From a virus (taxonomy: Duplodnaviria > Heunggongvirae > Uroviricota > Caudoviricetes), in IMG/VR virus record IMGVR_UViG_2576861133_000001: DNA of 19,349 nt; one strand, given 5' to 3'. Shown piece by piece: positions 6,542 through 19,349 of the stretch. Both the position numbers and the translations under genes were made by a program. Each line of letters starts with the position of its first letter. Within the stretch, counting starts at the first letter, position 1. The notes below the pieces were generated by a model. That model searched no databases, was not told where the DNA came from, and worked only from the letters and a program-made list of their open reading frames with translations.

Positions 6542-6850
6542 TCATGACTGTGCTGCGAAGCTCAGCGCGTCTTCCAGCGCCGCAAACGGATCCACCTCCG
6601 GCTTATCCTCATCCTCGCCCCAGCAGAGCATGGCGTCCTTCAGTGCAACATTCATCCCCTGTGCCCCAAAAACCGCTTTCACGATCTGTGCATTACGGAT
6701 ATCCCCGCGCTCATCACCCAGCGGGGATACCCTGTCGAACTCCATCCACATCATCGCCTCGCTCACACTCAGGCTGTGCCGCAGTTCGGATAAGGTGCGC
6801 CCCAGACGGAGCGCAAGTCGCATCAGAAAGCGAATTTCCGGGCGGGCTAC
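6542..6850 (-). CDS. T-frame segment of the tail assembly chaperone GT fusion, reached by a -1 frameshift from G
   Basis: The ORF in the -1 frame relative to G is open from the slippery site to the stop at 6542; it encodes LRLGRTLSELR..., which resembles the T domain of lambda-type GT. Confidence 0.6.
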   Translation of the reverse strand, partial: VARPEIRFLMRLALRLGRTLSELRHSLSVSEAMMWMEFDRVSPLGDERGDIRNAQIVKAVFGAQGMNVALKDAMLCWGEDEDKPEVDPFAALEDALSFAAQS

Positions 6851-7221
6851 TTTTTTCTGGCCGACTCTGCATCAGCGATCAGTTCCAGTGCCTGACGCAG
6901 CAACCGGGCATGTACCGGACCATAGACGGCCAGCACCTGCTCACGGTCGTCCGGAGCGAACACCCGCTGCAGATCCGTATCACACAGGACATCGCAGAAC
7001 AGCGTCACATCCGCTTCTAGGTTACGGCGGGTTTTCGCCACCACCGACAGGGTATCGTCATCCTCTCCATCACCATTGAGCACTTCCTGCCACAGATACC
7101 AGGCCTCTGCCGAAGGCTCCCGCAGCACCACGCTGACATTACCCCATTCCGGCACCTTCACCGTTTTATGACGAAACCCTGACAGTCTGGCCAGCGCCAG
7201 CGTTTTCAGATCCTTTTTCAT
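6847..7221 (-). CDS. Tail assembly chaperone G
   Basis: Sits between the major tail and tape-measure genes; ends ...ESARKK immediately after the slippery heptamer; start chosen at ATG 7221 (MKKDLKT), though ATG 7269 is an alternative that would overlap the major tail gene. Confidence 0.65.
   Translation of the reverse strand: MKKDLKTLALARLSGFRHKTVKVPEWGNVSVVLREPSAEAWYLWQEVLNGDGEDDDTLSVVAKTRRNLEADVTLFCDVLCDTDLQRVFAPDDREQVLAVYGPVHARLLRQALELIADAESARKK
6850..6856 (-). promoter_or_regulatory. Programmed -1 ribosomal frameshift slippery heptamer A AAA AAG (G to GT)
   Basis: Minus-strand reading gcc aga aaa aag tag; heptamer A_AAA_AAG lies in the G zero frame two codons before the G stop; the -1 frame continues open into T. 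Confidence 0.6.
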
Positions 7222-7235
7222 GATGACCCATCCCC

Positions 7236-7952
7236 TTATCCGGCGGCTGCGCTCACTGTCACGGTGCATTCAACAGACGTCACACTCTGTGCTTTCTCTG
7301 CCGAATCGGTCACCACGCAGGTATATTTCCCCGCATCAGCGGACTGCGCACCTGGCTTACTGAAGGTGTCTGTCGTCTGCCCGTCAACCGGCTGACCATC
7401 CTTCTTCCAGGCGTATTTATACGGCGGCGTTCCCCCGTTGGCACTGACTGACATTGTCAGCAGCGCACCTGTATTCACGGTAAGTGTTTTATCCAGATTT
7501 TTCACAAACGCCAGCGGTACCACAAAGGACACCGGTTTGCCTTTCATACGCAGTGAAAACGTTGCTGCCACCACGCCGTTGGTACCGGATGACCAGGTGT
7601 GCTGACGCACTTCCGCCAGGAACTTAAAGCCCTTACCGGACGGAAACAGCACCTTAAACGCATACAACGCGTCATTGTCATAGGCATCACGCAGGGCGTT
7701 CTGGGCCTGATTCAGATAAAAATTACCCGACATGGAAATCTCAGACGACGCCCCCAGACCGTTGATGTTCTCCTGCTCGGTGGAGCAGAGCGTGGTCACA
7801 TCAATATCCTGTTTCTGACCAGCGGTGAACTGGACTTCCTTGATGGTGCAGTCCAGGCGCAGATATTCCGCCTTATCCATAGTTTCAGCAGTCGCCGGGG
7901 CAGATGAAATCATCACCTGCGTCAGCTGTGAGCGTTCATACAAAGCAGACAT
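7236..7952 (-). CDS. Major tail protein with a C-terminal Ig-like domain
   Basis: 238 aa; strong AGGAGG ribosome-binding site upstream of ATG 7952; its position before G/GT; C-terminal segment KYAWKKDGQPV...GKYTCVVTD resembles a bacterial Ig-like fold. Confidence 0.8.
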   Translation of the reverse strand: MSALYERSQLTQVMISSAPATAETMDKAEYLRLDCTIKEVQFTAGQKQDIDVTTLCSTEQENINGLGASSEISMSGNFYLNQAQNALRDAYDNDALYAFKVLFPSGKGFKFLAEVRQHTWSSGTNGVVAATFSLRMKGKPVSFVVPLAFVKNLDKTLTVNTGALLTMSVSANGGTPPYKYAWKKDGQPVDGQTTDTFSKPGAQSADAGKYTCVVTDSAEKAQSVTSVECTVTVSAAAG

Positions 7953-8018: not shown

Positions 8019-8363
8019 TCACACCGTGACCTGAAACTCCAGGGTTGCACGGTAACAGCGGTTTTCCGGAATATAGTCCTGCATTTCACTGACGGATCCC
8101 GGGGCCAGCAGCATTATGGCTTCACGGGCGTCCTGACGTATCTGACGCGCCTGCGTCACAGTCCCGGCATAAACGTCTATCTGCACCGACACTGAGGACT
8201 CCGCCTGCCCGCCCATCACGTCCGCAGACACCGATGAAATCAGGCTGAAAACCACCCACGGAAGCGCCACCGACGGCCTGCCATCCAGCAGGGGGACCAC
8301 ATACGGGTACACCTGCCCGCCGGCAAGATGCGCCAGATGAGGATACAAATCCGCCTCCGTCAT
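8019..8363 (-). CDS. Tail completion / tail terminator-like protein (DUF3168-like position)
   Basis: 114-aa ORF; its ATG overlaps the upstream stop as ATGA; assignment is by position between the gp10-like gene and the major tail gene. Confidence 0.55.
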   Translation of the reverse strand: MTEADLYPHLAHLAGGQVYPYVVPLLDGRPSVALPWVVFSLISSVSADVMGGQAESSVSVQIDVYAGTVTQARQIRQDAREAIMLLAPGSVSEMQDYIPENRCYRATLEFQVTV

Positions 8364-8806
8364 CGTCTCAGTACCTCATCAATGGCCCGGTTCATCCGCG
8401 CAATCGCCACCTGAGCTGCCTGTTCACTGCGCACATCAAACGCCGGGCGCACAAACGGGTGCGGTGGCATATTCACGGTCCCCATTTCCACAAACCGCCA
8501 GTAGAAAGCATTGCGCGGGTTATCCGCCTTCATGGTGTTATCGCTGTTACCGGTGTCCGGATTAACACCACGGATATGGACACCGGATTCCATCCCGCCA
8601 TCGCGGGAGCGCCGGGAAAGGACCACCACATTGCGGCGCAGTTTTCCCCTGCGTACCGGTGCCCGTGACACCACTTCTTCTTTCAGCACATTCGCACCCG
8701 CACGGGTTGCCTCACGCAGCACCCGGTTATTTTCCGCACCACTCAGAAGCTGCAAATCGCGGCTGATGTCCTCCAGCCCCGAAAAATCCAGCAGGGTTTC
8801 GATCAT
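8360..8806 (-). CDS. HK97 gp10-family head-tail joining protein
   Basis: 148 aa; translationally coupled at both ends by ATGA overlaps; sequence style and position are typical of the HK97 gp10 family (recollection). Confidence 0.6.
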   Translation of the reverse strand: MIETLLDFSGLEDISRDLQLLSGAENNRVLREATRAGANVLKEEVVSRAPVRRGKLRRNVVVLSRRSRDGGMESGVHIRGVNPDTGNSDNTMKADNPRNAFYWRFVEMGTVNMPPHPFVRPAFDVRSEQAAQVAIARMNRAIDEVLRR

Positions 8807-9153
8807 TTTTCCCCTCCCAGCCGACAGAGAATTTCCAGACGCCCGCCGGTCGCATCCGGCACGGGCAGCCCGACAACGTTCAGGATCCGGTCACGCCATG
8901 GACCACTCAGCACATGAAGTCGTGACGCTGCCGTGATTTCCCGACCGGACTGACCGCGCACCCAGATGCGGATTTCCGCCTGCGCCATTTCCGCACCGGA
9001 CTGCATCCGCTCCCGGCTGCTCCTGCCTCGGATATCCGCATGAATTTTCCCGCATGACACCCATTCTTCCGTCATTTCTCCGGCAGCGTTACGGGTTAAC
9101 ACCGGGTTCAGAACACTTATCATCTGTGTCAGACGACCTGCAGATATTGCCAT
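8803..9153 (-). CDS. Head closure / head-tail adaptor protein
   Basis: 116-aa ORF that is second after the portal in the head-tail joining cluster; stop overlaps the next start. Confidence 0.55.
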   Translation of the reverse strand: MAISAGRLTQMISVLNPVLTRNAAGEMTEEWVSCGKIHADIRGRSSRERMQSGAEMAQAEIRIWVRGQSGREITAASRLHVLSGPWRDRILNVVGLPVPDATGGRLEILCRLGGEK

Positions 9154-9162
9154 TCCCCCTCC

Positions 9163-9489
9163 TCATAACACCGTCGGACAACGCAAATCGTAAATCAGCA
9201 CGGAAACAGAAAACGGCAGCTCCCCCTGAAGCAGTTCTTCCCGCTCCGCAAGATCCGGATTCCGGTACAGCATCCCGGTCAGTCGCATGGCAGCCCCCTT
9301 CATCCGGGTTAATGCCTCGCCCGGGATCAGTTCACCGTCCTCACGGATCACTTTATCCCGGCTGCCCTGAATGTAGGCCAGCAGCACGGCGGTAGCCTGA
9401 CGAACCTTGTCCATCAGCATGTCATCATCCGCGTCATGGTCGACACGCAGATGTGCCTTGATCTCTTCCAGTGTCAGTAATGCCGTCAT
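9163..9489 (-). CDS. gp6-like head-tail connector protein
   Basis: 108 aa; N-terminal motif LTLEEIKAHLRVDHDADDD is typical of gp6-type head-tail connectors; its ATG overlaps the portal stop. Confidence 0.7.
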   Translation of the reverse strand: MTALLTLEEIKAHLRVDHDADDDMLMDKVRQATAVLLAYIQGSRDKVIREDGELIPGEALTRMKGAAMRLTGMLYRNPDLAEREELLQGELPFSVSVLIYDLRCPTVL

Positions 9490-12071
9490 TTTCCGCCTCC
9501 TGCATCCCGCCCACGTTTTGCAGCCAGGGTCCAGGCTGATGAATGAGCTTCTCCGGGTTTATCTTCGGTCATACTGTTGCAGTGCCACAGCGAGCCCCCC
9601 CACGTCACCGTATCGCCGGGGTGGTAGGTTTCACCGGCTCTGAACACACCGCGGTAGAGCATCACCGGCAGGGAAAATGTTTTTTCCGTACGCTGGCCAC
9701 TGCTCTGCCGGACCACCACAGAGAACAACCGCTCACCCGTCATGCTGACGTCAATATCCGCCACCCCGTCAACCAGGCATTCCCATCCCCGCATCCCGTG
9801 CGTTTTTTCATACGCCCGCCAGAGTCCGCCCTGGTGTGTGGCATACGTGCCCCGGGGAAAGGATTTTTGATCGTCAATGGCGGGGAGTATTTCCAGAGCC
9901 GTGGCATCACGCCCGTCCTGCGGAGCCGGCAGGGCACTCACCGCATCCAGAACCGCCTTCTGCAGAACATCCGGATCGTAGTCACGACCATCACGCGGAA
10001 CATGAATATGGCTTACCGCCTCCTTCACCATCTGTTCAAGCATCGGACGCACATCATCCGGGGTGAGACTTTTACCGTCTGCCGGCTGCGGAATATTTGC
10101 GACCGCATCATTCACCGCCTTCTGCAGAACATCGGGATCATAGTCACGACCGTCGCGCGGAACAGGGATATGGCTTACAGCCTCCTTCACCATCTGTTCA
10201 AGCATCGGACGCACATCATCCGGGGTGAGACTTTTACCGTCCGCCGGCTGCGGAATATTTGCGACCGCATCATTCACCGCCTTCTGCAGTACTTCCGGAT
10301 CGTAGTCACGACCATCACGCGGAACAGGGATATGGCTTACAGCCTCCTTCACCATCTGTTCAAGCATCGGACGCACATCATCCGGGGTGAGACTTTTACC
10401 GTCCGCCGGCTGCGGAATATTTGCGACCGCATCATTCACCGCCTGCTGCAGTACATCCGGATCATAATCACGACCATCACGCGGTACCGGAATGGCCCCC
10501 ACAGCGTCATCCACCATCGCCTGCAGAACCGGACGCACCTCATCCACCGTCACATGCTTCTGTAATACCGCCGACAGGGAAGTCAGTTTCTCTTCAAACG
10601 CTTGTGCCTGCGAGGCCATCTTCCCCTCAAATGTGCGCTGTAAATCCGCCAGCACTGTGGAGAATTCTTCTCCCAGTGCACGAATAATGGACAGTTCCCG
10701 TTCCGTCATTTTCTCAGTATCCCCCCTGAACATCGCTTTCACCGCATCATGCTCTGTTTCACTGATTGCCTTATTACCGTCAGATGCGCCGTCAGGCAGC
10801 TGTGATGAAACTGTTTTCCCGGCAGACGCGAACGGATCCTCACGGGCATCACGACGGGACAGCGCCTCCAGACTGTAGTTCTGCTGCTGAAGATACAGTG
10901 CATCACCGCCGGCCAGGGGCGGCAGGTTCTCCCGTTTACGGGCCTCATTGGGCGTGAGAAGCGTATTTTTCACCGCATCCCCCAGCGTTTTCATGCGCCG
11001 CTCACTGTCCATTCTCAGCAGCGTGGTGACATCAAATTCTGTACTCTCGTTTTCCCCCGTTTCCAGCGCCTCATCCAGTAACAGTTCAATGGACTCAATC
11101 AGCGTCTGCAGGCACTGGGAATAATACTGCTGCTCCAGCGCCTCCACGTTGTCACTGGAAGGCGGTTGTCCCACGCCAATCTTGTAGGCCGGGACACGGA
11201 ACACCGAACAGACAATTTCAGCGGTCATCTTCAGTTGTTCCACCGTCTGCGCATCCACAGGTGAAAACGTCGTGGGGTTGTATTTTGCCCCGTTGCTCAG
11301 AATGGCCGTTTTCCCCGCATTTTCGCCTGTATACCCGCTGTCCCAGTTGCTCTTCAGTTTTTTCGCATTTTCTTCCGTAATACTGCCGGGGATCTCAATC
11401 ACCCCGGACGGCCTGCCGCCATTTCTGAAAAAAGACGTCGAATTTTCCTGAATATGATGCCCCTGCGTGGCCGCCAGCCCGGCGGCATACACCGGCGGCA
11501 ATCCTATAAGCGGATGAAAAAAACAGTTAAACCGGTCGTGGATCACTTCCCGGGCAGGCACCGTCACCGCCTCCGTGATCCCGCAGTTCCGGTCCGGCGT
11601 GATGCGGTAGAACACCTCGCCGTCATCCGCCACCAGAGGTTCAACCCGGCTCCAGTCCAGAATACGCAGTTCTTTGATCTGCCCCCGGGCATTACGGATT
11701 TTCAGCACCACCGTATTGCCATGACGCAGTTTGGCGTTCAGCCACAGTTCAAAAAACTGGATGCGGTTCTGCTGGGCGTTGGGACGACGACAGAGGCGGG
11801 CAATATCCCCCCGGCGCGTTTCCCTGCGTATCCCATGCGCATCCGTCTGCATAAGACGCAGCCGCATTTTGGCGATATCCTGGGATATCAGCGAAATACA
11901 TGCAAACACCGCATGAAAGGAGAGGACGGCTTCAGGATCGGCTTTCACGCCCTGCTGCCAGGCGCCGGAAAAGGGCTCAGCCACCGCCTGAAACAGGCTG
12001 GTCCAGCCCGCCTCTCTTACGTCACGTCCTGATTTCTGGTTTTTTCGGGTTCGCCGTAAAAGGTTCCACAT
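9486..12071 (-). CDS. HK97-family portal protein with a roughly 350-aa C-terminal extension (tandem 54-aa repeats plus a terminal aromatic-rich domain)
   Basis: The N-terminal roughly 450 aa align by eye to HK97 portal (FRNGGRPSG...KTAILSNGAKY...FRVPAYKIG against recalled FGNGSRPSG...KTAVL...FGVPPHLVG); the C-terminal part is an uninterrupted extension of the same ORF. Confidence 0.8.
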   Translation of the reverse strand: MWNLLRRTRKNQKSGRDVREAGWTSLFQAVAEPFSGAWQQGVKADPEAVLSFHAVFACISLISQDIAKMRLRLMQTDAHGIRRETRRGDIARLCRRPNAQQNRIQFFELWLNAKLRHGNTVVLKIRNARGQIKELRILDWSRVEPLVADDGEVFYRITPDRNCGITEAVTVPAREVIHDRFNCFFHPLIGLPPVYAAGLAATQGHHIQENSTSFFRNGGRPSGVIEIPGSITEENAKKLKSNWDSGYTGENAGKTAILSNGAKYNPTTFSPVDAQTVEQLKMTAEIVCSVFRVPAYKIGVGQPPSSDNVEALEQQYYSQCLQTLIESIELLLDEALETGENESTEFDVTTLLRMDSERRMKTLGDAVKNTLLTPNEARKRENLPPLAGGDALYLQQQNYSLEALSRRDAREDPFASAGKTVSSQLPDGASDGNKAISETEHDAVKAMFRGDTEKMTERELSIIRALGEEFSTVLADLQRTFEGKMASQAQAFEEKLTSLSAVLQKHVTVDEVRPVLQAMVDDAVGAIPVPRDGRDYDPDVLQQAVNDAVANIPQPADGKSLTPDDVRPMLEQMVKEAVSHIPVPRDGRDYDPEVLQKAVNDAVANIPQPADGKSLTPDDVRPMLEQMVKEAVSHIPVPRDGRDYDPDVLQKAVNDAVANIPQPADGKSLTPDDVRPMLEQMVKEAVSHIHVPRDGRDYDPDVLQKAVLDAVSALPAPQDGRDATALEILPAIDDQKSFPRGTYATHQGGLWRAYEKTHGMRGWECLVDGVADIDVSMTGERLFSVVVRQSSGQRTEKTFSLPVMLYRGVFRAGETYHPGDTVTWGGSLWHCNSMTEDKPGEAHSSAWTLAAKRGRDAGGGK
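9869..10546. repeat. About 4.2 tandem copies of a 162-bp (54-aa) near-identical coding repeat inside the portal gene
   Basis: Period-162 registration at 9961, 10123, 10285 and 10447; the three central copies differ by only a few substitutions; protein unit DDVRPMLEQMVKEAVSHIPVPRDGRDYDPDVLQKAVNDAVANIPQPADGKSLTP. Confidence 0.85.
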
Positions 12072-12238
12072 TCGCCATGCTCCGCATCACGTTTCTTTTT
12101 CTGACCTGCCGGACGTCGCACCGTGATGTACTCCGCCTTTCCCAGGCGAACCAGCACCTCCGCACACGGCTGTGCCACATCACGGATATCCCCGGCCCGG
12201 GCATCATGCGTGCCCTGCAGATATCGGATCTTTGCCAT
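12017..12238 (-). CDS. Hypothetical 73-aa basic protein in the capsid-portal intergenic gap (doubtful)
   Basis: ATG-initiated ORF in the ORF track; weak ribosome-binding site; overlaps the first 18 portal codons out of frame. Confidence 0.2.
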   Translation of the reverse strand: MAKIRYLQGTHDARAGDIRDVAQPCAEVLVRLGKAEYITVRRPAGQKKKRDAEHGECGTFYGEPEKTRNQDVT

Positions 12239-12282
12239 AACCTGTTACGGGAGGCGCACGCCTCCCGTCCTCCTTATCAGAC

Positions 12283-14220
12283 TCAGCCGCCGGACGCACT
12301 GCCGTAGTTCACTCCGGTGATCACCGCCACCGCCGCAGTACGGCGACGACGCCAGTTGATCCAGCGCTCCGCACGGATGGCCACGCTGCCTGTCTGGAAC
12401 ATGGAAACCAGCTCCACCGGGGACGGCGTGGTACTGTCGCCGGTCGGCTCAGACTGCATTTCCAGTGATGCCTCGCGGGACATATCCACTGCCACGCCGC
12501 CGTCATCCGCCAGATAAATATCCGGGGCATTCACCAGCACCAGCTGGTCACCCACGTACTGGGAGACAATCACCGGCAGCCCCTGGAAGGAGCCACCCAG
12601 CAGGGTCATGTCCGGGTATTCCTTCTGACCCAGCGCATTTTTACGCATGGACAGTGCCAGGGCATTGGTGCTGGACATCAGCCAGACCGCACCGGTGGGC
12701 TGCAGGTTTGCTGCCACAAACTGTCCAAACGCAGCCTCTGCATCCGCATCCGGGTTACCGGTTGATGCCGTGCCCTTCACATCATGGGTGATGGACGCCG
12801 GGGAGACATCTGCCACTGCGGCTTTTTTCGGGTCCACAAAGTCTGTATCCAGACGCGCCACCACCGCTTCCGCCAGCGCATTACGGACCAGTGCATCAGC
12901 AGCCGGACTGGAAAAACGGATCAATTCTTCCGTCAGTACCGCAATGGCCGACACCTTCGCATGACTGAAGGTGATGGATTCAAAATCAAACTTCGTCAGG
13001 GGTTTTGCCTTACCCTCACCCACCCAGCCGGCAGCACCGCCGGACACCTGGGCGTGCACACGGATATTGAATGGCACCTGACGAAGTGCAGGGATCCCGC
13101 CCTGACCAAATCGCCCGATAATGGTCTGCGGACGCAGGTAATCAATAAAGTCCTGTGCGTATTCCTGATATTCAGACAGGCTGCCTGCCCACTGCGGATC
13201 CGTGGTGGTCCCCGCGCCCACTGCCGATTTCAGGACATGATGCAGACGACTGTCATCCGGATACTGACGACGGGCCACTTCCAGGGCTTCAGATCGGACG
13301 CCTTTAGCCGCAGCCAGCGATTTGGCAAAGCGGGCGAAGCCAATCCCCTTATCCAGTTTCTGCTCCACACGGATCACCGGCGCAGAAGCCACCGCGGCCA
13401 CATTCCCGTTACCGGCCTGTTTCACCGGCTGCGCCGTGGCGGCCTTACCGGCTTCCAGTTCACGCAGGCGCTTCAGGTGCGCATCCACCTGACGGATTTC
13501 CGCTGCGGTGTTGTCGTAATGCTCTTCCTCCTCCACATCCAGCGTGCGCCCTTCCTCTGCGGCTTTGGTCATGACCTCCTCAAGGGAGGCTGCCAGCGCT
13601 GCACGCTTGTTTTCAAAACTTTTAATCTGTTCGCCAATATTCATTATGGTCTTTTCCTTATGAAAAACGGTTGTTGACTGTGCCGCAGCGCCGGCAGAAG
13701 ATGCGATTTTCACCACCGGTTTCCGGTTGCCGGACGCGGCAGAAAACGGGCGGTCGTAAGATTTAATGGTCCGGATGGTGCATTCCGCATTCGCGGGCAC
13801 GGTGACGGCAGACACCTCCATCAGTTCCCAGCGCAGAAAATGCAGTCCGCCTCCGTCCAGAAAGGTGTATTCATGGGGACGGAAGCCCACGGACAGCCCC
13901 CTGACCAGCCCGGTCTTAATGGCCGCCCAGACCTCATCCAGCCGGGCAGCCAGTTGCGACGGCATATCCGGTACGGGCTTCACCAGTGTTGCCGTGATTT
14001 CCAGCCCTTCGCTGACCCGGCGCACCGTACACTGCCCCACCGGGCGGGAATGGTCATGCTGCCAGAGAAACGGGATCGCACTGCCAAACTCCGCGCCCTC
14101 CGGCTCCAGGATGTCACCATCCCGATCCGGAGAAGGCGTTGACGCAATCCCGGTGATCACCCGTTCATCCTCACTGAAGGATTTCACCGTCAGCAGGGAA
14201 CAGGCCCGTTTAAGAGTCAC
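12283..14220 (-). CDS. Fused HK97-family prohead serine protease (S78-like) and major capsid protein
   Basis: 645 aa; N-terminal protease-like motifs (GIASTP...LWQHD...GLSVGF...EVSAVTVPAN), a central coiled-coil delta-like segment, and a C-terminal HK97-fold capsid-like region; GTG start at 14220 preceded by AGGAGG. Confidence 0.8.
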   Translation of the reverse strand: MTLKRACSLLTVKSFSEDERVITGIASTPSPDRDGDILEPEGAEFGSAIPFLWQHDHSRPVGQCTVRRVSEGLEITATLVKPVPDMPSQLAARLDEVWAAIKTGLVRGLSVGFRPHEYTFLDGGGLHFLRWELMEVSAVTVPANAECTIRTIKSYDRPFSAASGNRKPVVKIASSAGAAAQSTTVFHKEKTIMNIGEQIKSFENKRAALAASLEEVMTKAAEEGRTLDVEEEEHYDNTAAEIRQVDAHLKRLRELEAGKAATAQPVKQAGNGNVAAVASAPVIRVEQKLDKGIGFARFAKSLAAAKGVRSEALEVARRQYPDDSRLHHVLKSAVGAGTTTDPQWAGSLSEYQEYAQDFIDYLRPQTIIGRFGQGGIPALRQVPFNIRVHAQVSGGAAGWVGEGKAKPLTKFDFESITFSHAKVSAIAVLTEELIRFSSPAADALVRNALAEAVVARLDTDFVDPKKAAVADVSPASITHDVKGTASTGNPDADAEAAFGQFVAANLQPTGAVWLMSSTNALALSMRKNALGQKEYPDMTLLGGSFQGLPVIVSQYVGDQLVLVNAPDIYLADDGGVAVDMSREASLEMQSEPTGDSTTPSPVELVSMFQTGSVAIRAERWINWRRRRTAAVAVITGVNYGSASGG

Positions 14221-14232
14221 ATCAGCCTCCTG

Positions 14233-14258
14233 AAAATAAAAAAACCGCCGGAGCGGTT
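14233..14258 (-). terminator. Intra-operon hairpin with U-tract between the terminase large subunit gene and the capsid gene
   Basis: Stem aaccgc (14243-14248) / gcggtt (14253-14258), loop cgga, followed on the minus strand by tttttatttt; same sequence family as the hairpin at 6511-6533. Confidence 0.4.
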
Positions 14259-14283
14259 CGTGATGGTTACAGTGTGAACAGGG

Positions 14284-15945
14284 TTATATGAAAAAAACCG
14301 CATATTCTTTCTTTTTCGGTTCCGGGTTAAGGGACATCAGGGAGACCGCATTGAACAGCGCCATCAGCGGGTCAATTTTTCCCCGTCCACTGGCCTGTTT
14401 GGTGATAAGAATGGCGTTACCTTTAGGCTCCACCCGGGCATTGCCGACACACCAGGCCATCAGGGGCTGGTCACCATGCACCAGCACCCCTTCAGCCAGT
14501 TTGCGCTCGGTGGTTTTAATGGCCCCGCCCAGTTTCCAGCCCTGGCTTATCCCCACCACAATTCCGTCGGGGATCCCGGCTTCCGCCAGTGAATCCAGAA
14601 TCTGCCCCACCCCTGACGGGTCAATACCGATATGGTCCAGTAACTCAGCCTCATGAATGCGACGCACATATTCCGCCACTTCCGCCGTGTCATCCCCGAC
14701 ACGCCGGACAATGGTCATATCTCCACAGGCAACAAGATCCTGAAACCGGGACGCCTCGCTCTTCCGTCGGACCACCGCGGTTTCATGCGCCCAGGCATGG
14801 CCCCAGCCCAGCCATTCGCGGGTCTCCCGGTCACGCCCAATCACATACATCCCCAGCAGATCATCCAGCCCTCCGCCGTCAATCCCCACCGTCACCACAT
14901 CAGCACGACGCAGGATATCGTCCAGGCTGATACAACGGCCCTGCTCTTCCCAGAAATCAGCCCCCGCCCAGCGGTCAGAGCGCAGGGCAAGACCAATTTC
15001 CACATTGGCGTGTTTTGACATGAACCCCCGGAATGTCTCTTCACCGGCTTCCCGGGCTTTACGGTACTCCCGGTACAGAAAGGCCTCATCCACTGAATAG
15101 CCGAGATTCGGATTGACCATGGCGAGGTTTTCCATCAGCAGGTTAGTCCCGCTTTCCACCATTTCAGGAGGGTGTTCAAATATCACCGGCAGAAAGTGCG
15201 GATCATGAATTTTGCCGTCGCGCACATCCCGGGCGTACTGCAGTTTCTGTCTGAACACCCCGGCGGGCGGTTCATTCGACTGGGTGGTCGTATACACCAC
15301 AAACCCTTCCGGGCGGGAGGCAAGGCCGCCTATGGCTTCACGTAACATGTCCTCCGCCTTGCACTGCTTGCCAAACAGCCACAACTCATCAATCAGCGTA
15401 CCCACGGACTTGATACCGGACACCGTATTCGGATCGGCTGCCACCACCTTCAGGGTGGTGTCCGTCACTCGGTGGGTGATGGTCCGGATATGGGTCTGTA
15501 CCTGGCAGAGGTCATCCAGATCATCGTCACGTCGTACCATATCCCGGGCAGGGTTGAAGGCGTTGGCCGCCACCTCCACAGTCGGGGCCAGAATCGTGTA
15601 ACCCGCCGCCTGCCGCCAGTTCAGTAACAGTGCAGTCATCATGATCCCCGCGGCCAGCGTGGACTTCGAGTTTTTCTTGGGGATAAGGATAAAAACTTCC
15701 TTGATATGGCGTACACCGGTCTGCGCATCGTAGGAGCCAAACAGGGCCGCCACCAGGTCAAACACCCACGGTGCACAGGACTCCCCGAACGTAGGGCTAC
15801 CAGGTGCATCCACAATCCGCAGTTGTTTAAAAATCGCCAGGGCATGTGCGGCCTCGTCCGGATAAATCGGATCCGGAATAATCGACAGCCCCTTTTTCAG
15901 GCGCTCTGCCCAGTCCGGGCAGGCTGTGCTCCATACAGGTATCAT
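14284..15945 (-). CDS. Terminase large subunit
   Basis: 553 aa; Walker-A-like LIPKKNSKST; C-terminal nuclease-like region; ATG overlaps the small-subunit stop as ATGA. Confidence 0.85.
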   Translation of the reverse strand: MIPVWSTACPDWAERLKKGLSIIPDPIYPDEAAHALAIFKQLRIVDAPGSPTFGESCAPWVFDLVAALFGSYDAQTGVRHIKEVFILIPKKNSKSTLAAGIMMTALLLNWRQAAGYTILAPTVEVAANAFNPARDMVRRDDDLDDLCQVQTHIRTITHRVTDTTLKVVAADPNTVSGIKSVGTLIDELWLFGKQCKAEDMLREAIGGLASRPEGFVVYTTTQSNEPPAGVFRQKLQYARDVRDGKIHDPHFLPVIFEHPPEMVESGTNLLMENLAMVNPNLGYSVDEAFLYREYRKAREAGEETFRGFMSKHANVEIGLALRSDRWAGADFWEEQGRCISLDDILRRADVVTVGIDGGGLDDLLGMYVIGRDRETREWLGWGHAWAHETAVVRRKSEASRFQDLVACGDMTIVRRVGDDTAEVAEYVRRIHEAELLDHIGIDPSGVGQILDSLAEAGIPDGIVVGISQGWKLGGAIKTTERKLAEGVLVHGDQPLMAWCVGNARVEPKGNAILITKQASGRGKIDPLMALFNAVSLMSLNPEPKKKEYAVFFI

Positions 15946-16505
15946 CCGTTGCCCTCATTATCGTTATTCACCACCAGTCGGGGGGGCGGTGGCACCGCAA
16001 AACGGTTAGCCGCTTTTTTCGCGGCATCACCTTTTGCCGATTTTTTCCCGGTATCCCCTTTTTTATGGTGCGTGAACTGCGCCAGACGCCAGGCCGCATC
16101 CAGTGCCAGTTTCGGATCAATGCAGAGGTTTTCCACCAGGATCCGCCCCATGGCTTTCACCGGATCGGGAAGACCATCCTCCATATATTCAATACCAGGA
16201 GACATCACCGCGGACGGTGGCATCTCCAGATTGTTTTCGTCCGGCTGTGGTATTGCAGCCGCCTCACGGCGACGGGGTTTATCCTCCTGCTCTGATTTTT
16301 TCTGCCGGTAAACAGGAACCTCATCCACCTCCACCGTCTCGCATTGTTTACGGGCTATAAACGCAAGCACCTCAGGATCTTTTGCCAGCTGCGAGCCTTT
16401 AACCCTGGCGGTCTTCGCCGAATAACCGGCGGCAATGGCTGACGCTGTTTTGTTTTTCCCGGACATGAGCGCCAGCGCAAATTTTCGTTTTTGCGTTGTC
16501 AGCAC
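15942..16505 (-). CDS. Terminase small subunit (Terminase_2-type HTH N-terminus)
   Basis: 187 aa; GTG start at 16505 preceded by GGAGGAGG; N-terminus LTTQKRKFALALMSGKNKTASAIAAGYSAKTA resembles small-terminase DNA-binding domains. Confidence 0.75.
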   Translation of the reverse strand: MLTTQKRKFALALMSGKNKTASAIAAGYSAKTARVKGSQLAKDPEVLAFIARKQCETVEVDEVPVYRQKKSEQEDKPRRREAAAIPQPDENNLEMPPSAVMSPGIEYMEDGLPDPVKAMGRILVENLCIDPKLALDAAWRLAQFTHHKKGDTGKKSAKGDAAKKAANRFAVPPPPRLVVNNDNEGNG

Positions 16506-16579
16506 AGCCTCCTCCCGGGTCCAGAACGCACTCAGCCGGGTATGGTTCAGCCCATTTTTCCCGGCGTCTCATGCCGCAA

Positions 16580-16702
16580 ATGTTAACTGCTGCCTGGTTA
16601 ACATTTGCTGAAAAAGCCTGTTAACATTTTTTCCGCACAACAAACTGAATAATAAAGATAAAAACCGCAAAAATGCCCGGGCAGCCAGTTAACATGTTAA
16701 CT
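16580..16702. promoter_or_regulatory. Array of five GTTAAC(AT) palindromic motifs; candidate cos / terminase small-subunit binding region
   Basis: GTTAAC at 16582-16587, 16597-16602, 16620-16625, 16688-16693 and 16696-16701, four of them with the extended 8-mer GTTAACAT/ATGTTAAC, inside the 290-bp gap between the HNH and terminase small-subunit genes. Confidence 0.55.
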
Positions 16703-16795: not shown

Positions 16796-17161
16796 TTACA
16801 GTCCGATGATGTCGTCCTCTCTGCCACTACCTCCGGACACCTCCGGCAGCGTCGGGTCCGGCATACCACTCGCCGCTTCACGAGCAGACTTTTGTCGATG
16901 GCATTCGGCACAGAGCGTCCAAAGATTCGTCTCCTCATTACCACCACCGAACTGAAGTGCAATTCGGTGATCGAGTTCACTGTCACAGAGGTCAACCACA
17001 CGACCACAGATACAGCACTGCCCGGCGTCCCTCAGCCAGATATGACGCTTGAGGGAAACACGTGCACTGCCACTGACACGACGCTGCTCCCCCTTCAGAA
17101 TATTCACCCGTCGGGTATTCAGTGTTTTGATTCTGCTCTGGAGTGTACGAAGCTCAGCCAT
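16796..17161 (-). CDS. HNH endonuclease (terminase-associated)
   Basis: 121 aa; zinc-finger-like CCICG...C...DH...N...N...CAECH HNH motif; location immediately upstream of the cos-like region and terminase genes, as in HK97-type packaging modules. Confidence 0.85.
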   Translation of the reverse strand: MAELRTLQSRIKTLNTRRVNILKGEQRRVSGSARVSLKRHIWLRDAGQCCICGRVVDLCDSELDHRIALQFGGGNEETNLWTLCAECHRQKSAREAASGMPDPTLPEVSGGSGREDDIIGL

Positions 17162-17202
17162 GTAAAATCCCCGTCATATGGCAATCAGTAAAGGAAATAA
17201 AT

Positions 17203-17403
17203 ATGTCATCGAAAAACCGGACCCGCAGAACCACAACCCGCAATATCCGTTTCCCCAATCACATAATTGAACAGATCAACATCGCCCTTGAGCATAAAGG
17301 GTCCGGTAACTTTTCAGCGTGGGTTATTGAAGCCTGCAGGAGAAGGCTGGCAACAGATGCAACGCATCTGCGCCCGGCCAGCATGACAAATAACGAGAAA
17401 TGA
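17203..17403 (+). CDS. Small ribbon-helix-helix-like protein, possibly YlcI/YnfO-like (DUF3950-type)
   Basis: 66-aa ORF from ATG 17203 with an AAGGAAA ribosome-binding site 5 nt upstream; sequence NIRFPNHIIEQINIALEHKGSGNFSAWVIEACRRRL resembles RHH-type small prophage proteins (recollection); it is the only plus-strand gene in the window. Confidence 0.5.
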   Translation: MSSKNRTRRTTTRNIRFPNHIIEQINIALEHKGSGNFSAWVIEACRRRLATDATHLRPASMTNNEK

Positions 17404-17601
17404 ACGTTCGGTTTCTTCCACCATCGCACCGGACAGGCGACTATGAGGGGACAACGCCGCGCTCCGTTAACGCGGTAAACCCCGGTGTGTATCGTTTTTG
17501 ATTATCCCCGCACACTCGCGCAGAGGAGTCTCCCTGTCGGGCTGCGGTCTCTGTTAATGCAGGAATACGGCGACAATACCGCGCATGGATAATAAGGTCG
17601 C

Positions 17602-17817
17602 TCAACACACTGGCTGTAATACCATGCGGCATTTAGCGGCATTCATCGTACACTCCACGGTTAGCTCTTCATTCGTGGCATTCACCTGAAAGGTCCGGGA
17701 GTGTAATTGCGTACATTTACCACTGAACGAACCTTCAACAAGAACACGACCACGCTGCAAAATACGGAACGGAATTGTTCCCTGAAAAGGTTCTACGGTT
17801 ACCCGTAATTTCTTCAT
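17602..17817 (-). CDS. Hypothetical 71-aa protein translationally coupled to Rz
   Basis: Its ATG (17815-17817) overlaps the Rz stop as ATGA; Cys-containing, no signal peptide, no family recognised. Confidence 0.45.
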
Positions 17818-18308
17818 GTATCCTCCGGATAATAAAAAGCCAGCTTAGTGCACTGAGTGCGGATATATTCCTGCGCCCCTTCCAGCTGCTTCTGCATTGT
17901 CATCAACCGTTCTCTGAGGATGAAATAATCCCGTTCAGCGGTGTCTGCCAGTCGGGGGCCGGTTGCATTATCCACGCTGGAGGTGCCGGTGGCTTCACGC
18001 ACGGTACCGGGGCAGGTGGCGTTGACCCGCAGGCGCTTACGACCAGCGGCAACATCAGCGCGCAGAGTTTCATTTTCAGCTCTCGCATCGGCTAATTCCT
18101 TCGTGTATCTGGCATCAAGCGCAGCGACATCTCGCTGGCGCTGCTGCATGTCAGTAATAGTGGCATTCGCCAGTTTCAGCTCACTGACTTTTTTATCGCG
18201 CTGCGCTTTGTAGGTGATGGCGTTATCGCGGTAATGATTCAGCCCCAGACTAAGCACACCACAGGCTACCAGCATGACAATAATCACCACACACAGAACA
18301 CGGTTCAT
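17814..18308 (-). CDS. Rz: Spanin inner-membrane subunit Rz
   Basis: Start set at ATG 18308 ([14 protein letters not shown]...); [16 protein letters not shown] and [10 protein letters not shown] match recalled lambda Rz; the ORF-track start at 18392 is a GTG extension. Confidence 0.85.
17903..18088 (-). CDS. Rz1: Spanin outer-membrane lipoprotein Rz1, embedded in the +1 frame of Rz
   Basis: 61 aa; lipobox LVVSAC followed by a Pro-rich segment [26 protein letters not shown], very similar to recalled lambda Rz1. Confidence 0.8.
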
Positions 18309-18407
18309 ATCACCACCAACGGATTGCCCAGACCAGAACAGCAATGGCCACAATACGAATGGCAAATGCCATTGCCCGAATAAGTTCAGCACTCATCTTT
18401 TTAAAGT

Positions 18408-18530
18408 TCACGATTTCAGCGCAATGACCAGTTTTGCCAGCCCATACAGCATCGGAGACACAGCAATACCAACAGCCACCCACTTAATAGCAAAAGCCAG
18501 CGCTCTGCTGATGTCATCAGTCACTGTCAC
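18408..18530 (-). CDS. Candidate 40-aa hydrophobic peptide (third of three coupled small ORFs)
   Basis: GTG at 18530 overlaps the stop of the preceding peptide ORF as GTGA; encodes TVTDDISRALAFAIKWVAVGIAVSPMLYGLAKLVIALKS; codon choices look more natural than the overlapping alternative frame. Confidence 0.25.
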   Translation of the reverse strand: MTVTDDISRALAFAIKWVAVGIAVSPMLYGLAKLVIALKS

Positions 18531-18658
18531 CCCAGCAGCCCCGACGAAGACAACATCACCCAGGCGAGGGACAGAAAAAGAGCAACCAGCATTAGTGAAA
18601 ATGAAATACCGACAATCACACACAGGACCTTTGCCGGCGTTATGAGTTTGTCTGACAT
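18527..18658 (-). CDS. Candidate 43-aa single-pass membrane peptide
   Basis: ATG at 18658 preceded by AAGGGG 5 nt upstream; encodes MSDKLITPAKVLCVIVGISFSLMLVALFLSLAWVMLSSSGLLG. Confidence 0.35.
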   Translation of the reverse strand: MSDKLITPAKVLCVIVGISFSLMLVALFLSLAWVMLSSSGLLG

Positions 18659-18660
18659 AG

Positions 18661-18756
18661 CTACCCCTTAATTGCCACAATTAACTGGGATACTACCCAT
18701 AAAAAAGGGATGCTCCAGACCAGCAAAAATTTCCAGTTTGGTAATTGACTAATCAT
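18661..18756 (-). CDS. Candidate 31-aa hydrophobic peptide
   Basis: ATG at 18756 with GGGAG upstream; encodes MISQLPNWKFLLVWSIPFLWVVSQLIVAIKG; its stop lies 2 nt before the next peptide start. Confidence 0.3.
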   Translation of the reverse strand: MISQLPNWKFLLVWSIPFLWVVSQLIVAIKG

Positions 18757-18825
18757 GAGTCGCAACTCCCTAATCAGTTTGCTAAAATCAATCAAGGCAG
18801 CCTCCCATAGCTTACTGCCATAAAA

Positions 18826-18861
18826 ACAAAACCCCGCTTGCTGCCAACAAACGGGGTTTTT
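18826..18861. terminator. Bidirectional rho-independent terminator-like hairpin downstream of the endolysin gene
   Basis: aaaacccccg ... cggggtttt: stem ccccg (18832-18836) / cgggg (18852-18856) extended by A/T pairs, followed by a T-run on plus and an equivalent U-run on minus. Confidence 0.45.
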
Positions 18862-18950
18862 ACTTTTATTCACTTAGGTTTTGCCAGTTCACAGGACTTC
18901 GTGTTATCCGCCCGCGTTGGCCAACCTCATTTTTCAGCAAAATATTCTGC

Positions 18951-19349
18951 TTATCTGTCGATTCCCCAGCACGCCAGCGCGCTCTCCTGGTCACGACGGA
19001 ATACCTGACCGTAACAGTTATTTGAGCGAATACGGCAGTCTCTGCCACCGTCCTTAATCCACCAGCGAATCGCTTCGCATGCTCCCCTGCGATCACCTGC
19101 ATTAATTCGTCTGTAAAACGTCGACGGGAAACACTTACCGGGACCAATGTTGTACGGACAGAATGACGCGATCCCCGCTTTCTGGGGTTCGGTCAATGGC
19201 ACTTTGATGTTTTTCTCCACCCATGCCAGCGCCTTATCACGCTCAATGGCGTTAACCCGGTCGCATTTTTCCTTCGACAACTTCATGCCCGGAACGACAG
19301 GTTTGCCATCCACCAGGATGGCACCGCGGCAGATGGTCCAGATACCCGC
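18951..19349 (-). CDS. Endolysin, GH24 (T4/P21 lysozyme-type), 3' portion; the 5' end lies beyond the window edge
   Basis: The reading frame is open to the window edge; the C-terminal region aligns by eye to the phage 21 / RrrD-type lysozyme pattern (IWTIC.G, SF.YN.G.G.F..ST....IN.GD..GAC...R.W, C.WG). Confidence 0.8.
   Translation of the reverse strand, partial: AGIWTICRGAILVDGKPVVPGMKLSKEKCDRVNAIERDKALAWVEKNIKVPLTEPQKAGIASFCPYNIGPGKCFPSTFYRRINAGDRRGACEAIRWWIKDGGRDCRIRSNNCYGQVFRRDQESALACWGIDR

Follow-up and report, generated by a model that had tools for sequence, protein, structure and literature searches.

Head genes of the window

The window analysed here is a 19,349-nucleotide stretch of viral DNA (IMG/VR record IMGVR_UViG_2576861133_000001; Caudoviricetes) that carries an HK97-like head module in which the major capsid gene precedes the portal gene. 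All relevant open reading frames (ORFs) lie on the minus strand, to which every feature position below refers. Read along that strand, they encode an HNH endonuclease, the small and large terminase subunits (TerS and TerL), a 645-amino-acid fusion of S78 prohead protease, scaffold and HK97-fold capsid, a 73-amino-acid small gene, an 861-amino-acid portal ORF, the head-tail adaptor Ad1 and the head closure protein Hc1. Genes were assigned by profile searches with Pfam, PHROGs and NCBIfam and from the Prokaryotic Genome Annotation Pipeline (PGAP) annotation of identical Escherichia coli chromosomes.

Profile matches were found along the whole module. TerL (14284-15945) combines a PF03354 ATPase with a PF20441 nuclease domain and matches phrog_9 (E 4.5e-145). 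The protease-capsid fusion (12283-14220; phrog_617, E 1e-261) carries Peptidase_S78 (PF04586) at residues 48-152 and Phage_capsid (PF05065) at residues 386-635, and the portal ORF (9486-12071) matches Phage_portal over residues 54-382 (E 6e-81) and TIGR01537 over residues 1-450. Behind the portal stand Ad1, an HK97 gp6-like protein (9163-9489; PF05135, phrog_40), and Hc1 (8803-9153; PF05521, E 1.9e-17; phrog_25). At the other end, TerS (15942-16505; PF03592; phrog_641, E 7.6e-68) is preceded by the HNH endonuclease (16796-17161; PF01844, E 2.7e-7; phrog_589, E 1.8e-44; PGAP 'HNH endonuclease'), and many related loci likewise have an HNH match ahead of TerL. Together, the Pfam, PHROG and NCBIfam domains bear out the assignments and the order TerL, protease-capsid, portal, connectors that an earlier sequence-only reading had proposed; the same searches ruled out swapped labels, with the 645-residue product as portal and the 861-residue product as protease-capsid. 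The portal thus stands after the capsid gene, outside the canonical HK97/lambda layout (TerL, portal, protease, scaffold where present, capsid), and the HK97 record, which runs TerS-TerL-portal-protease-major capsid protein (MCP), confirms the departure noted in that reading.

Translational coupling had been claimed for every junction except the capsid-portal one. This holds at the 4-nucleotide overlaps of the TerS stop with the TerL start and of the Ad1 start with the portal ORF stop, but fails between TerL and the capsid gene, where a 63-nucleotide spacer contains a terminator-like hairpin with a T-run, followed by AGGAGG, 5 nucleotides and the GTG start of the capsid gene. The hairpin (GAACCGC-TCCG-GCGGTTT plus T-run; 14242-14259) was located by a consensus scan and in the sequence itself; since its fold z-score is only -1.0, its function is one that we infer. 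With this T-run hairpin ahead of it and a G+C-rich stem-loop behind it, the protease-capsid gene is flanked in the manner annotated for HK97 gp4-gp5.

The 645-residue polypeptide consists of an S78 prohead protease (residues ~20-160), a coiled-coil scaffold/delta region and an HK97-fold major capsid protein (residues ~200-645). Membership of the protease part in the S78 serine proteases is supported by PF04586 (E 2.4e-8) and by BLASTP against HK97 gp4 (E 4e-8), which aligns FLWQHDH and GLSVGF in register with the gp4 His and Ser motifs; TIGR01543 scored 46.5 bits on this part, under its cutoff of 59. The capsid part belongs to the HK97-fold capsids by TIGR01554 (78.1 bits, cutoff 27.5) and PF05065 (53 bits, cutoff 24.2), while BLASTP of the fusion against HK97 gp5 found no direct similarity and a PDB sequence search no solved relative. 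NCBIfam NF045541 (scaf_prot_MCP2, 'prohead protease/major capsid protein fusion protein') reached 54 bits against a cutoff of 525, on the protease part only; the two fusions appear to share an architecture while belonging to different sequence families. A fused protease-capsid gene occurs in 40 related loci; the remaining 32 have two separate genes or a frame truncated at a contig end, so the fusion is a variable character within the clade.

The 211-bp interval between the capsid and portal genes (12072-12282), previously regarded as an empty gap, is occupied by a conserved gene and a stem-loop and is no scar. The gene encodes 73 amino acids (12017-12238; phrog_829, E 3.7e-39), overlaps the portal start by 55 nucleotides and is called by PGAP as WP_001063099.1 in identical E. 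coli chromosomes; it is not listed in several phage records, such as that of phage 2851. An iterative profile search found homologues in the capsid-portal interval of 32 related loci, with the N-terminal ~40 residues conserved across the clade and variable tails. DUF7210 matched weakly in 6 of 30 family members, and some relatives add an E3-binding/PSBD-like C-terminal motif. For the 73-residue product itself there was no Pfam family at E≤1, no NCBIfam match and no PDB sequence match at E≤1, and a single-sequence AlphaFold2 model had a predicted local distance difference test score (pLDDT) of 43. A lambda gpW-like head completion protein was considered, lambda W also preceding the portal gene, and found no sequence support.

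Directly after the capsid stop lies a hairpin with a 9-bp stem and a 4-nucleotide loop (12247-12268; centroid ~-19 kcal/mol; no T-run). Across 73 loci, the ~80 nucleotides after the capsid stop form more stable structure than windows drawn at random from that locus (median z -2.1; z<-1 in 92%; Wilcoxon p 3e-13), and stable structure at this position is general in the clade. The distance from capsid stop to portal start in relatives is typically 216-700 nucleotides (median ~340), which places the window at the short end.

Close and distant relatives of the head module

Nucleotide comparison was performed with a 7.6-kb block of the window (9000-16600). Unbroken matches at 100% identity cover this block in many complete E. 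coli chromosomes and in phage vB_EcoS-783R2; the block is 98.1% identical, likewise in one piece, to Shiga toxin (Stx) 2c phage 2851 (Pankowvirus), 95.6% identical to JLK-2012 (Marienburgvirus) and 95-96% identical to many Stx1a/Stx2c-converting phages. Matches occur in 1,258 of 5,426 complete E. coli genomes, in 1,240 of which at least 80% of the block is covered in one place, as it is in 90 of 95 matching phage records. The capsid-portal junction recurs base for base in many E. coli chromosomes, with 419 records at ≥99% identity and single-piece 100% matches. The records of phage 2851, JLK-2012 and E. coli 4/4 (PGAP) are annotated in exactly the order of the window.

Identity between close relatives is interrupted by homologous-recombination breakpoints at ~14.8 kb inside TerL (phage 2851), at ~12.2-12.0 kb (JLK-2012) and at ~11.8 kb inside the portal (EH1904). 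A divergent patch of 85-95% identity spans TerS (16001-16200) and the 5' half of TerL (14800-16000), with relatives returning to 99-100% further downstream; this patch is ordinary lambdoid mosaicism with a breakpoint in TerL near 14.8 kb.

To reach further, distant relatives were collected by tblastn with the capsid fusion. Capsid identity was 48% in Pseudomonas phage PAJU2, 39% in Burkholderia vB_FKKS2-type phages, 36-39% in Ralstonia phages and 35-37% in Moraxella Mcat phages (37% in Mcat6). The PAJU2, vB_FKKS2 and Mcat6 records all list TerS, TerL, protease (fused or separate) and capsid, a small ORF that overlaps the beginning of the portal gene, the portal itself and the connectors. A scan of one genome per bacterial species yielded 69 further loci from Alpha-, Beta- and Gammaproteobacteria and a few other metagenome-assembled genomes. 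The portal lay downstream of the capsid gene on the same strand in 71 of the 72 loci (all 3 phage records and 68 of 69 other-species loci), at 33-54% capsid identity among the proteobacterial loci of the same order, and TerL lay upstream of the capsid gene wherever it was detected. IMG/VR holds at least 472 relatives; among 80 that were fetched, the portal was downstream in 76 of 76 and TerL upstream in 79 of 79. Outside the clade the closest portals are at most 30% identical, and those sampled in phage genomes that start at the packaging end stand 2-3.5 kb in, directly after the terminase.

The order had been flagged as a possible oddity, a view that does not survive the existence of a well-populated clade with exactly this arrangement. 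Its persistence in three proteobacterial classes, at capsid identities as low as 33-39%, means that it cannot be recent. The capsid-before-portal order is genuine and, within its lineage, ordinary, and annotated public records already show it; very probably it is the fixed inherited layout of a large, old HK97-like head-module clade in proteobacterial phages, with no scar in the apparent gap.

Several points weigh against this interpretation. One locus (L075) has no portal within 8 kb downstream of its capsid gene. Literature searches found no paper explicitly discussing the order or the portal fusion, so that 'known' here refers to annotated public records and not to published analysis. The clade-wide fold control used mostly coding windows as background, and within the window alone both hairpins are unexceptional against shuffles (z -1.4 for 12247-12268 and -1.0 for 14242-14259). 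Finally, the late transcript, the roles of the hairpins and the translational coupling that enter the account of how the module works are ones that we infer.

The surroundings agree with the nucleotide matches, with lysis genes upstream and lambda-type tail genes downstream of the module. Nucleotide identity and a collinear structural module place the window with the Pankowvirus/Marienburgvirus type, a likeness that concerns the late region within the 19-kb window; ICTV genera are drawn at about 70% identity over full genomes. The window is the late region of a lambdoid siphovirus prophage, very probably a long-tailed E. coli prophage of that type. Pankowviruses have been isolated as siphovirus virions (PMC12502783). 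Beyond Hc1 follow an HK97 gp10-like gene (8360-8806; PF04883), the tail terminator (8019-8363; PF11367) and the major tail protein (7236-7952), which has at its C-terminus an Ig-like domain (Ig_3/I-set) resembling Hoc-like PHROGs. A G/T-like tail assembly chaperone pair (6542-7269; phrog_344 and phrog_337) lies upstream of a 1080-amino-acid tape measure gene. G+C content is 0.47-0.52 at 1-500 and 17000-19349, against 0.55-0.62 in the structural genes; the low-G+C stretches match the lysis/accessory region and the tail-tip J end.

Portal fusion, G tract and accessory protein

The portal proper occupies residues 1-~452 of the 861-residue ORF (10707-12071) and belongs to the HK97 family (PF04860, E 6e-81; TIGR01537, 351.5 bits, cutoff 112). 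It matches the solved portals 9lbn, 8cez/8fql (HK97) and 6tba (RcGTA), and is 26.6% identical to the HK97 portal. Its C-terminus continues into an accessory protein (9486-10709) that has helical/'PxPxDG' repeats and, at its own C-terminus, a CBM5/12-like beta domain. The separate ORF007 of PAJU2 is a homologue of residues ~455-861 (E 1e-26), and an accessory homologue follows the portal in 50 related loci, as a separate gene in all but one and with its start no more than 16 nucleotides from the portal stop in ~40 of the 50.

Members of this accessory family are 167-427 residues long in most loci; collagen repeats occur in 11 and CBM_5_12 in 12 of 41 members, and the family profile matches the CBM region of chitinase 60 (E 5e-5). 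Pfam family PF28083 is listed as well for this part of the window. A homologue search with the portal extension returned near-identical E. coli entries only, in a shallow alignment, and a single-sequence structure model of the extension had a pLDDT of 40. A MuF-like identity was rejected, as neither the extension nor any of the 41 family members has a Phage_Mu_F Pfam match. Within the accessory part, Tandem Repeats Finder identified a 162-bp (54-residue) tandem repeat (9952-10545; 3.3 copies, 95% matches). The Stx2c phage Stx2_EH1904 lacks exactly one 162-bp unit (10080-10241), and the number of copies differs from phage to phage.

Alignment with JLK-2012, Stx1_JNE122398 and Stx2_EH1904, and the sequence itself, reveal a run of six G residues (G6) at 10721-10726, also present in phage 2851. 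The sixth G joins the portal frame to that of the downstream gene, giving the 861-residue fusion, whereas in alleles with five (G5) the portal ends at a TGA that overlaps the next ATG. G5 was found in JLK-2012, in the sampled Stx1a phage (Stx1_JNE122398) and in the sampled Stx2c phage (Stx2_EH1904), where portal and accessory protein are two genes, and the JLK-2012 record is annotated with two ORFs for them. The 861-residue 'portal' is thus a portal joined through one extra G to a collagen/CBM5-12-like gene that is normally separate.

Both alleles are common in IMG/VR contigs, with 41 carrying G6 and 57 carrying G5. Both states occurred in 3 of 46 otherwise identical ±250-nucleotide haplotypes, which reflects either recurrent slippage or homopolymer sequencing error. 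Fused portals are limited to the ≥90% E. coli group (9 fused, 34 not fused), and in the 73-78% identity group portal and accessory gene are split in all 22 loci. A clade-wide programmed frameshift between the two genes was rejected, since start-to-stop offsets in tightly coupled loci fall in two frame classes (0 and -3 nucleotides versus -7 and -13 nucleotides).

It is conceivable, though improbable, that the G5/G6 tract acts as a functional switch and is not a neutral or damaging mutation, with the collagen/CBM5-12-like fibre-type protein either free or tethered to the twelve portal C-termini. Such a switch might operate by slipped-strand phase variation, or by low-level -1 slippage at AGG-GGG-AUA in G5 alleles, and if it exists, one prophage family would produce two virion forms. 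Phage 2851, which carries the fused allele, is one that we take to be inducible and able to lysogenize. The portal/accessory fusion is the only element here that might repay experiment.

Explanations of the order and comparison with known systems

Relative to HK97, the adjacent portal cassette and the hairpin-flanked protease-capsid cassette appear to have swapped places. One Q-antiterminated late transcript would cover all head genes, and with genes in the same direction on a single transcript the swap would not require a different assembly mechanism. In the predicted pathway, fusion protein and portal dodecamer would assemble jointly, after which the S78 domain would cut out both itself and the scaffold region; DNA would be packaged by the terminase together with HNH, and the head closed by Ad1 and Hc1. 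The strong AGGAGG site and the post-capsid stem-loop may favour high capsid output, the portal would be translated at a low level through coupling to the overlapping small gene, and the overlap chain of portal, accessory protein and Ad1 could couple the 12-copy ring proteins to one another and limit their amounts.

These features also invite an adaptive explanation, in which the order was selected for expression control: the high-copy capsid gene would come first, and the 12-copy ring proteins (portal, Ad1, Hc1) would follow an attenuating or stabilising stem-loop that sets stoichiometry. This is compatible with an old inherited layout, to which it would add adaptive value. The general occurrence of stable structure after the capsid stop is consistent with it, as are the strong AGGAGG of the capsid gene against a weak AGG at the small gene, the portal start inside the small gene, and the chain of overlaps through small gene, portal, accessory protein and Ad1. 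Yet HK97 reaches the same stoichiometry with its portal upstream, and with hairpins around its protease-MCP block too, so the order is not needed for expression control; the high-copy major tail protein, moreover, also lies downstream. On balance we regard selection for expression control as doubtful.

Far less probable is that this prophage lineage underwent a rearrangement or exchanged modules recently, joining a portal-connector module to a TerL-capsid module at the capsid-portal interval; the sequence-only reading had raised a junction of this kind as a possibility. The identity of JLK-2012, one of four close relatives, does fall from ~100% to 87-97% at its breakpoint in this interval, which leans weakly towards an exchange, but the breakpoints of phage 2851 and EH1904 lie elsewhere, in TerL and the portal, as in ordinary homologous mosaicism. 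The interval holds extra genes (1.3-4 kb of DNA) in 7 of 71 distant relatives, another weak pointer; these insertions show that the slot tolerates cargo and have no bearing on the present element. Capsid identity correlates with portal identity (Spearman 0.45, p 7e-5), whereas TerL falls into two classes beside the same capsid type (≥40% identity in 34 loci, <30% in 10); the component differing between the modules of relatives is TerL and not the capsid-portal pairing. A recent exchange also conflicts with an order conserved to 33-39% capsid identity in three proteobacterial classes, with the same arrangement in the 1,240 E. coli genomes and 90 phage records, and with a supposed joint that is a conserved small gene.

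Among the insertions, those of loci L010 (10058-13612) and L026 (4280-7771) encode large Ig-like proteins (He_PIG, fn3, BNR, SWM/PKD-like), which are plausibly capsid decoration proteins; the insertion ORF of L031 (10687-11619, 310 amino acids) had no Pfam match.

That a misjoin at 12072-12282 put the portal after the capsid gene is an artefact reading with a negligible chance of being right and is effectively refuted already: it has no positive support beyond the interval having been the only non-overlapping junction visible to the sequence-only reading, which itself doubted an assembly scramble, and it is contradicted by the identical junction in many independently closed E. coli chromosomes and independently sequenced phage genomes, by the conserved gene that overlaps the portal start, and by the order shared with distant relatives.

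Among HK97-like head modules, capsid before portal is a stable synteny variant of little biological weight. Annotated E. coli prophages and Stx-phage genomes that show it number in the hundreds, and relatives throughout the Proteobacteria have it too. For annotators and prophage callers, neither the order nor a short capsid-portal interval is a sign of misassembly or decay; a small conserved gene should be expected in the interval, and 'portal' ORFs of ~450 or ~860 amino acids can differ by a single G.

Known systems resemble the window to different degrees. Actinophage portal-MuF fusions and SPP1 gp7-type proteins offer an analogy for the fused accessory protein only, being encoded directly downstream of the portal, separately or as a fusion; Arthrobacter phage records carry a 'Portal and MuF-like fusion protein'. 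The extension in the window differs from these in having collagen-like or 'PxPxDG' repeats and a CBM5/12-like end, with no Phage_Mu_F. HK97 shares the S78 protease with its motifs in register, the TIGR01554 capsid, the TIGR01537 portal and gp6/gp7/gp10/gp11-like connectors. Its record annotates putative terminators on both sides of the protease-MCP block, comparable to the hairpin-flanked fusion gene of the window. In HK97, as in the window, an HNH endonuclease adjoins the terminase genes. HK97 differs in placing the portal between TerL and the protease, in encoding protease and capsid as separate genes, and in having neither the small gene before the portal nor a portal-coupled accessory protein.

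Within the clade, Burkholderia vB_FKKS2-type and Moraxella Mcat phages share the order, and in both the portal start is overlapped by a small-gene homologue of 58-62 residues; they differ in having separate protease and capsid genes and no accessory protein after the portal. PAJU2 shares the run of TerS, TerL, protease/capsid fusion (its record reads 'prohead protease fused capsid protein'), small ORFs, portal, accessory protein and adaptor, at 48% (capsid), 39% (portal) and 28% (accessory, ORF007) identity to the window. It differs in that the portal (464 amino acids) and ORF007 (334 amino acids) are separate genes overlapping by 4 nucleotides, and in having two small ORFs between capsid and portal, one of which, ORF005, seems hydrophobic and shows no clear homology to the 73-residue gene.

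The closest counterparts are phage 2851, JLK-2012, the long-tailed Stx1a/Stx2c-converting phages and the PPompW prophages, at 95-98% identity and in identical order. Like the window, they all carry the fused protease-capsid gene, the small gene and the same set of connectors, and phage 2851 also has a fused portal (859 amino acids). Unlike these Stx phages, non-Stx E. coli prophages (strain 4/4, vB_EcoS-783R2) are 100% identical to the copy in the window.

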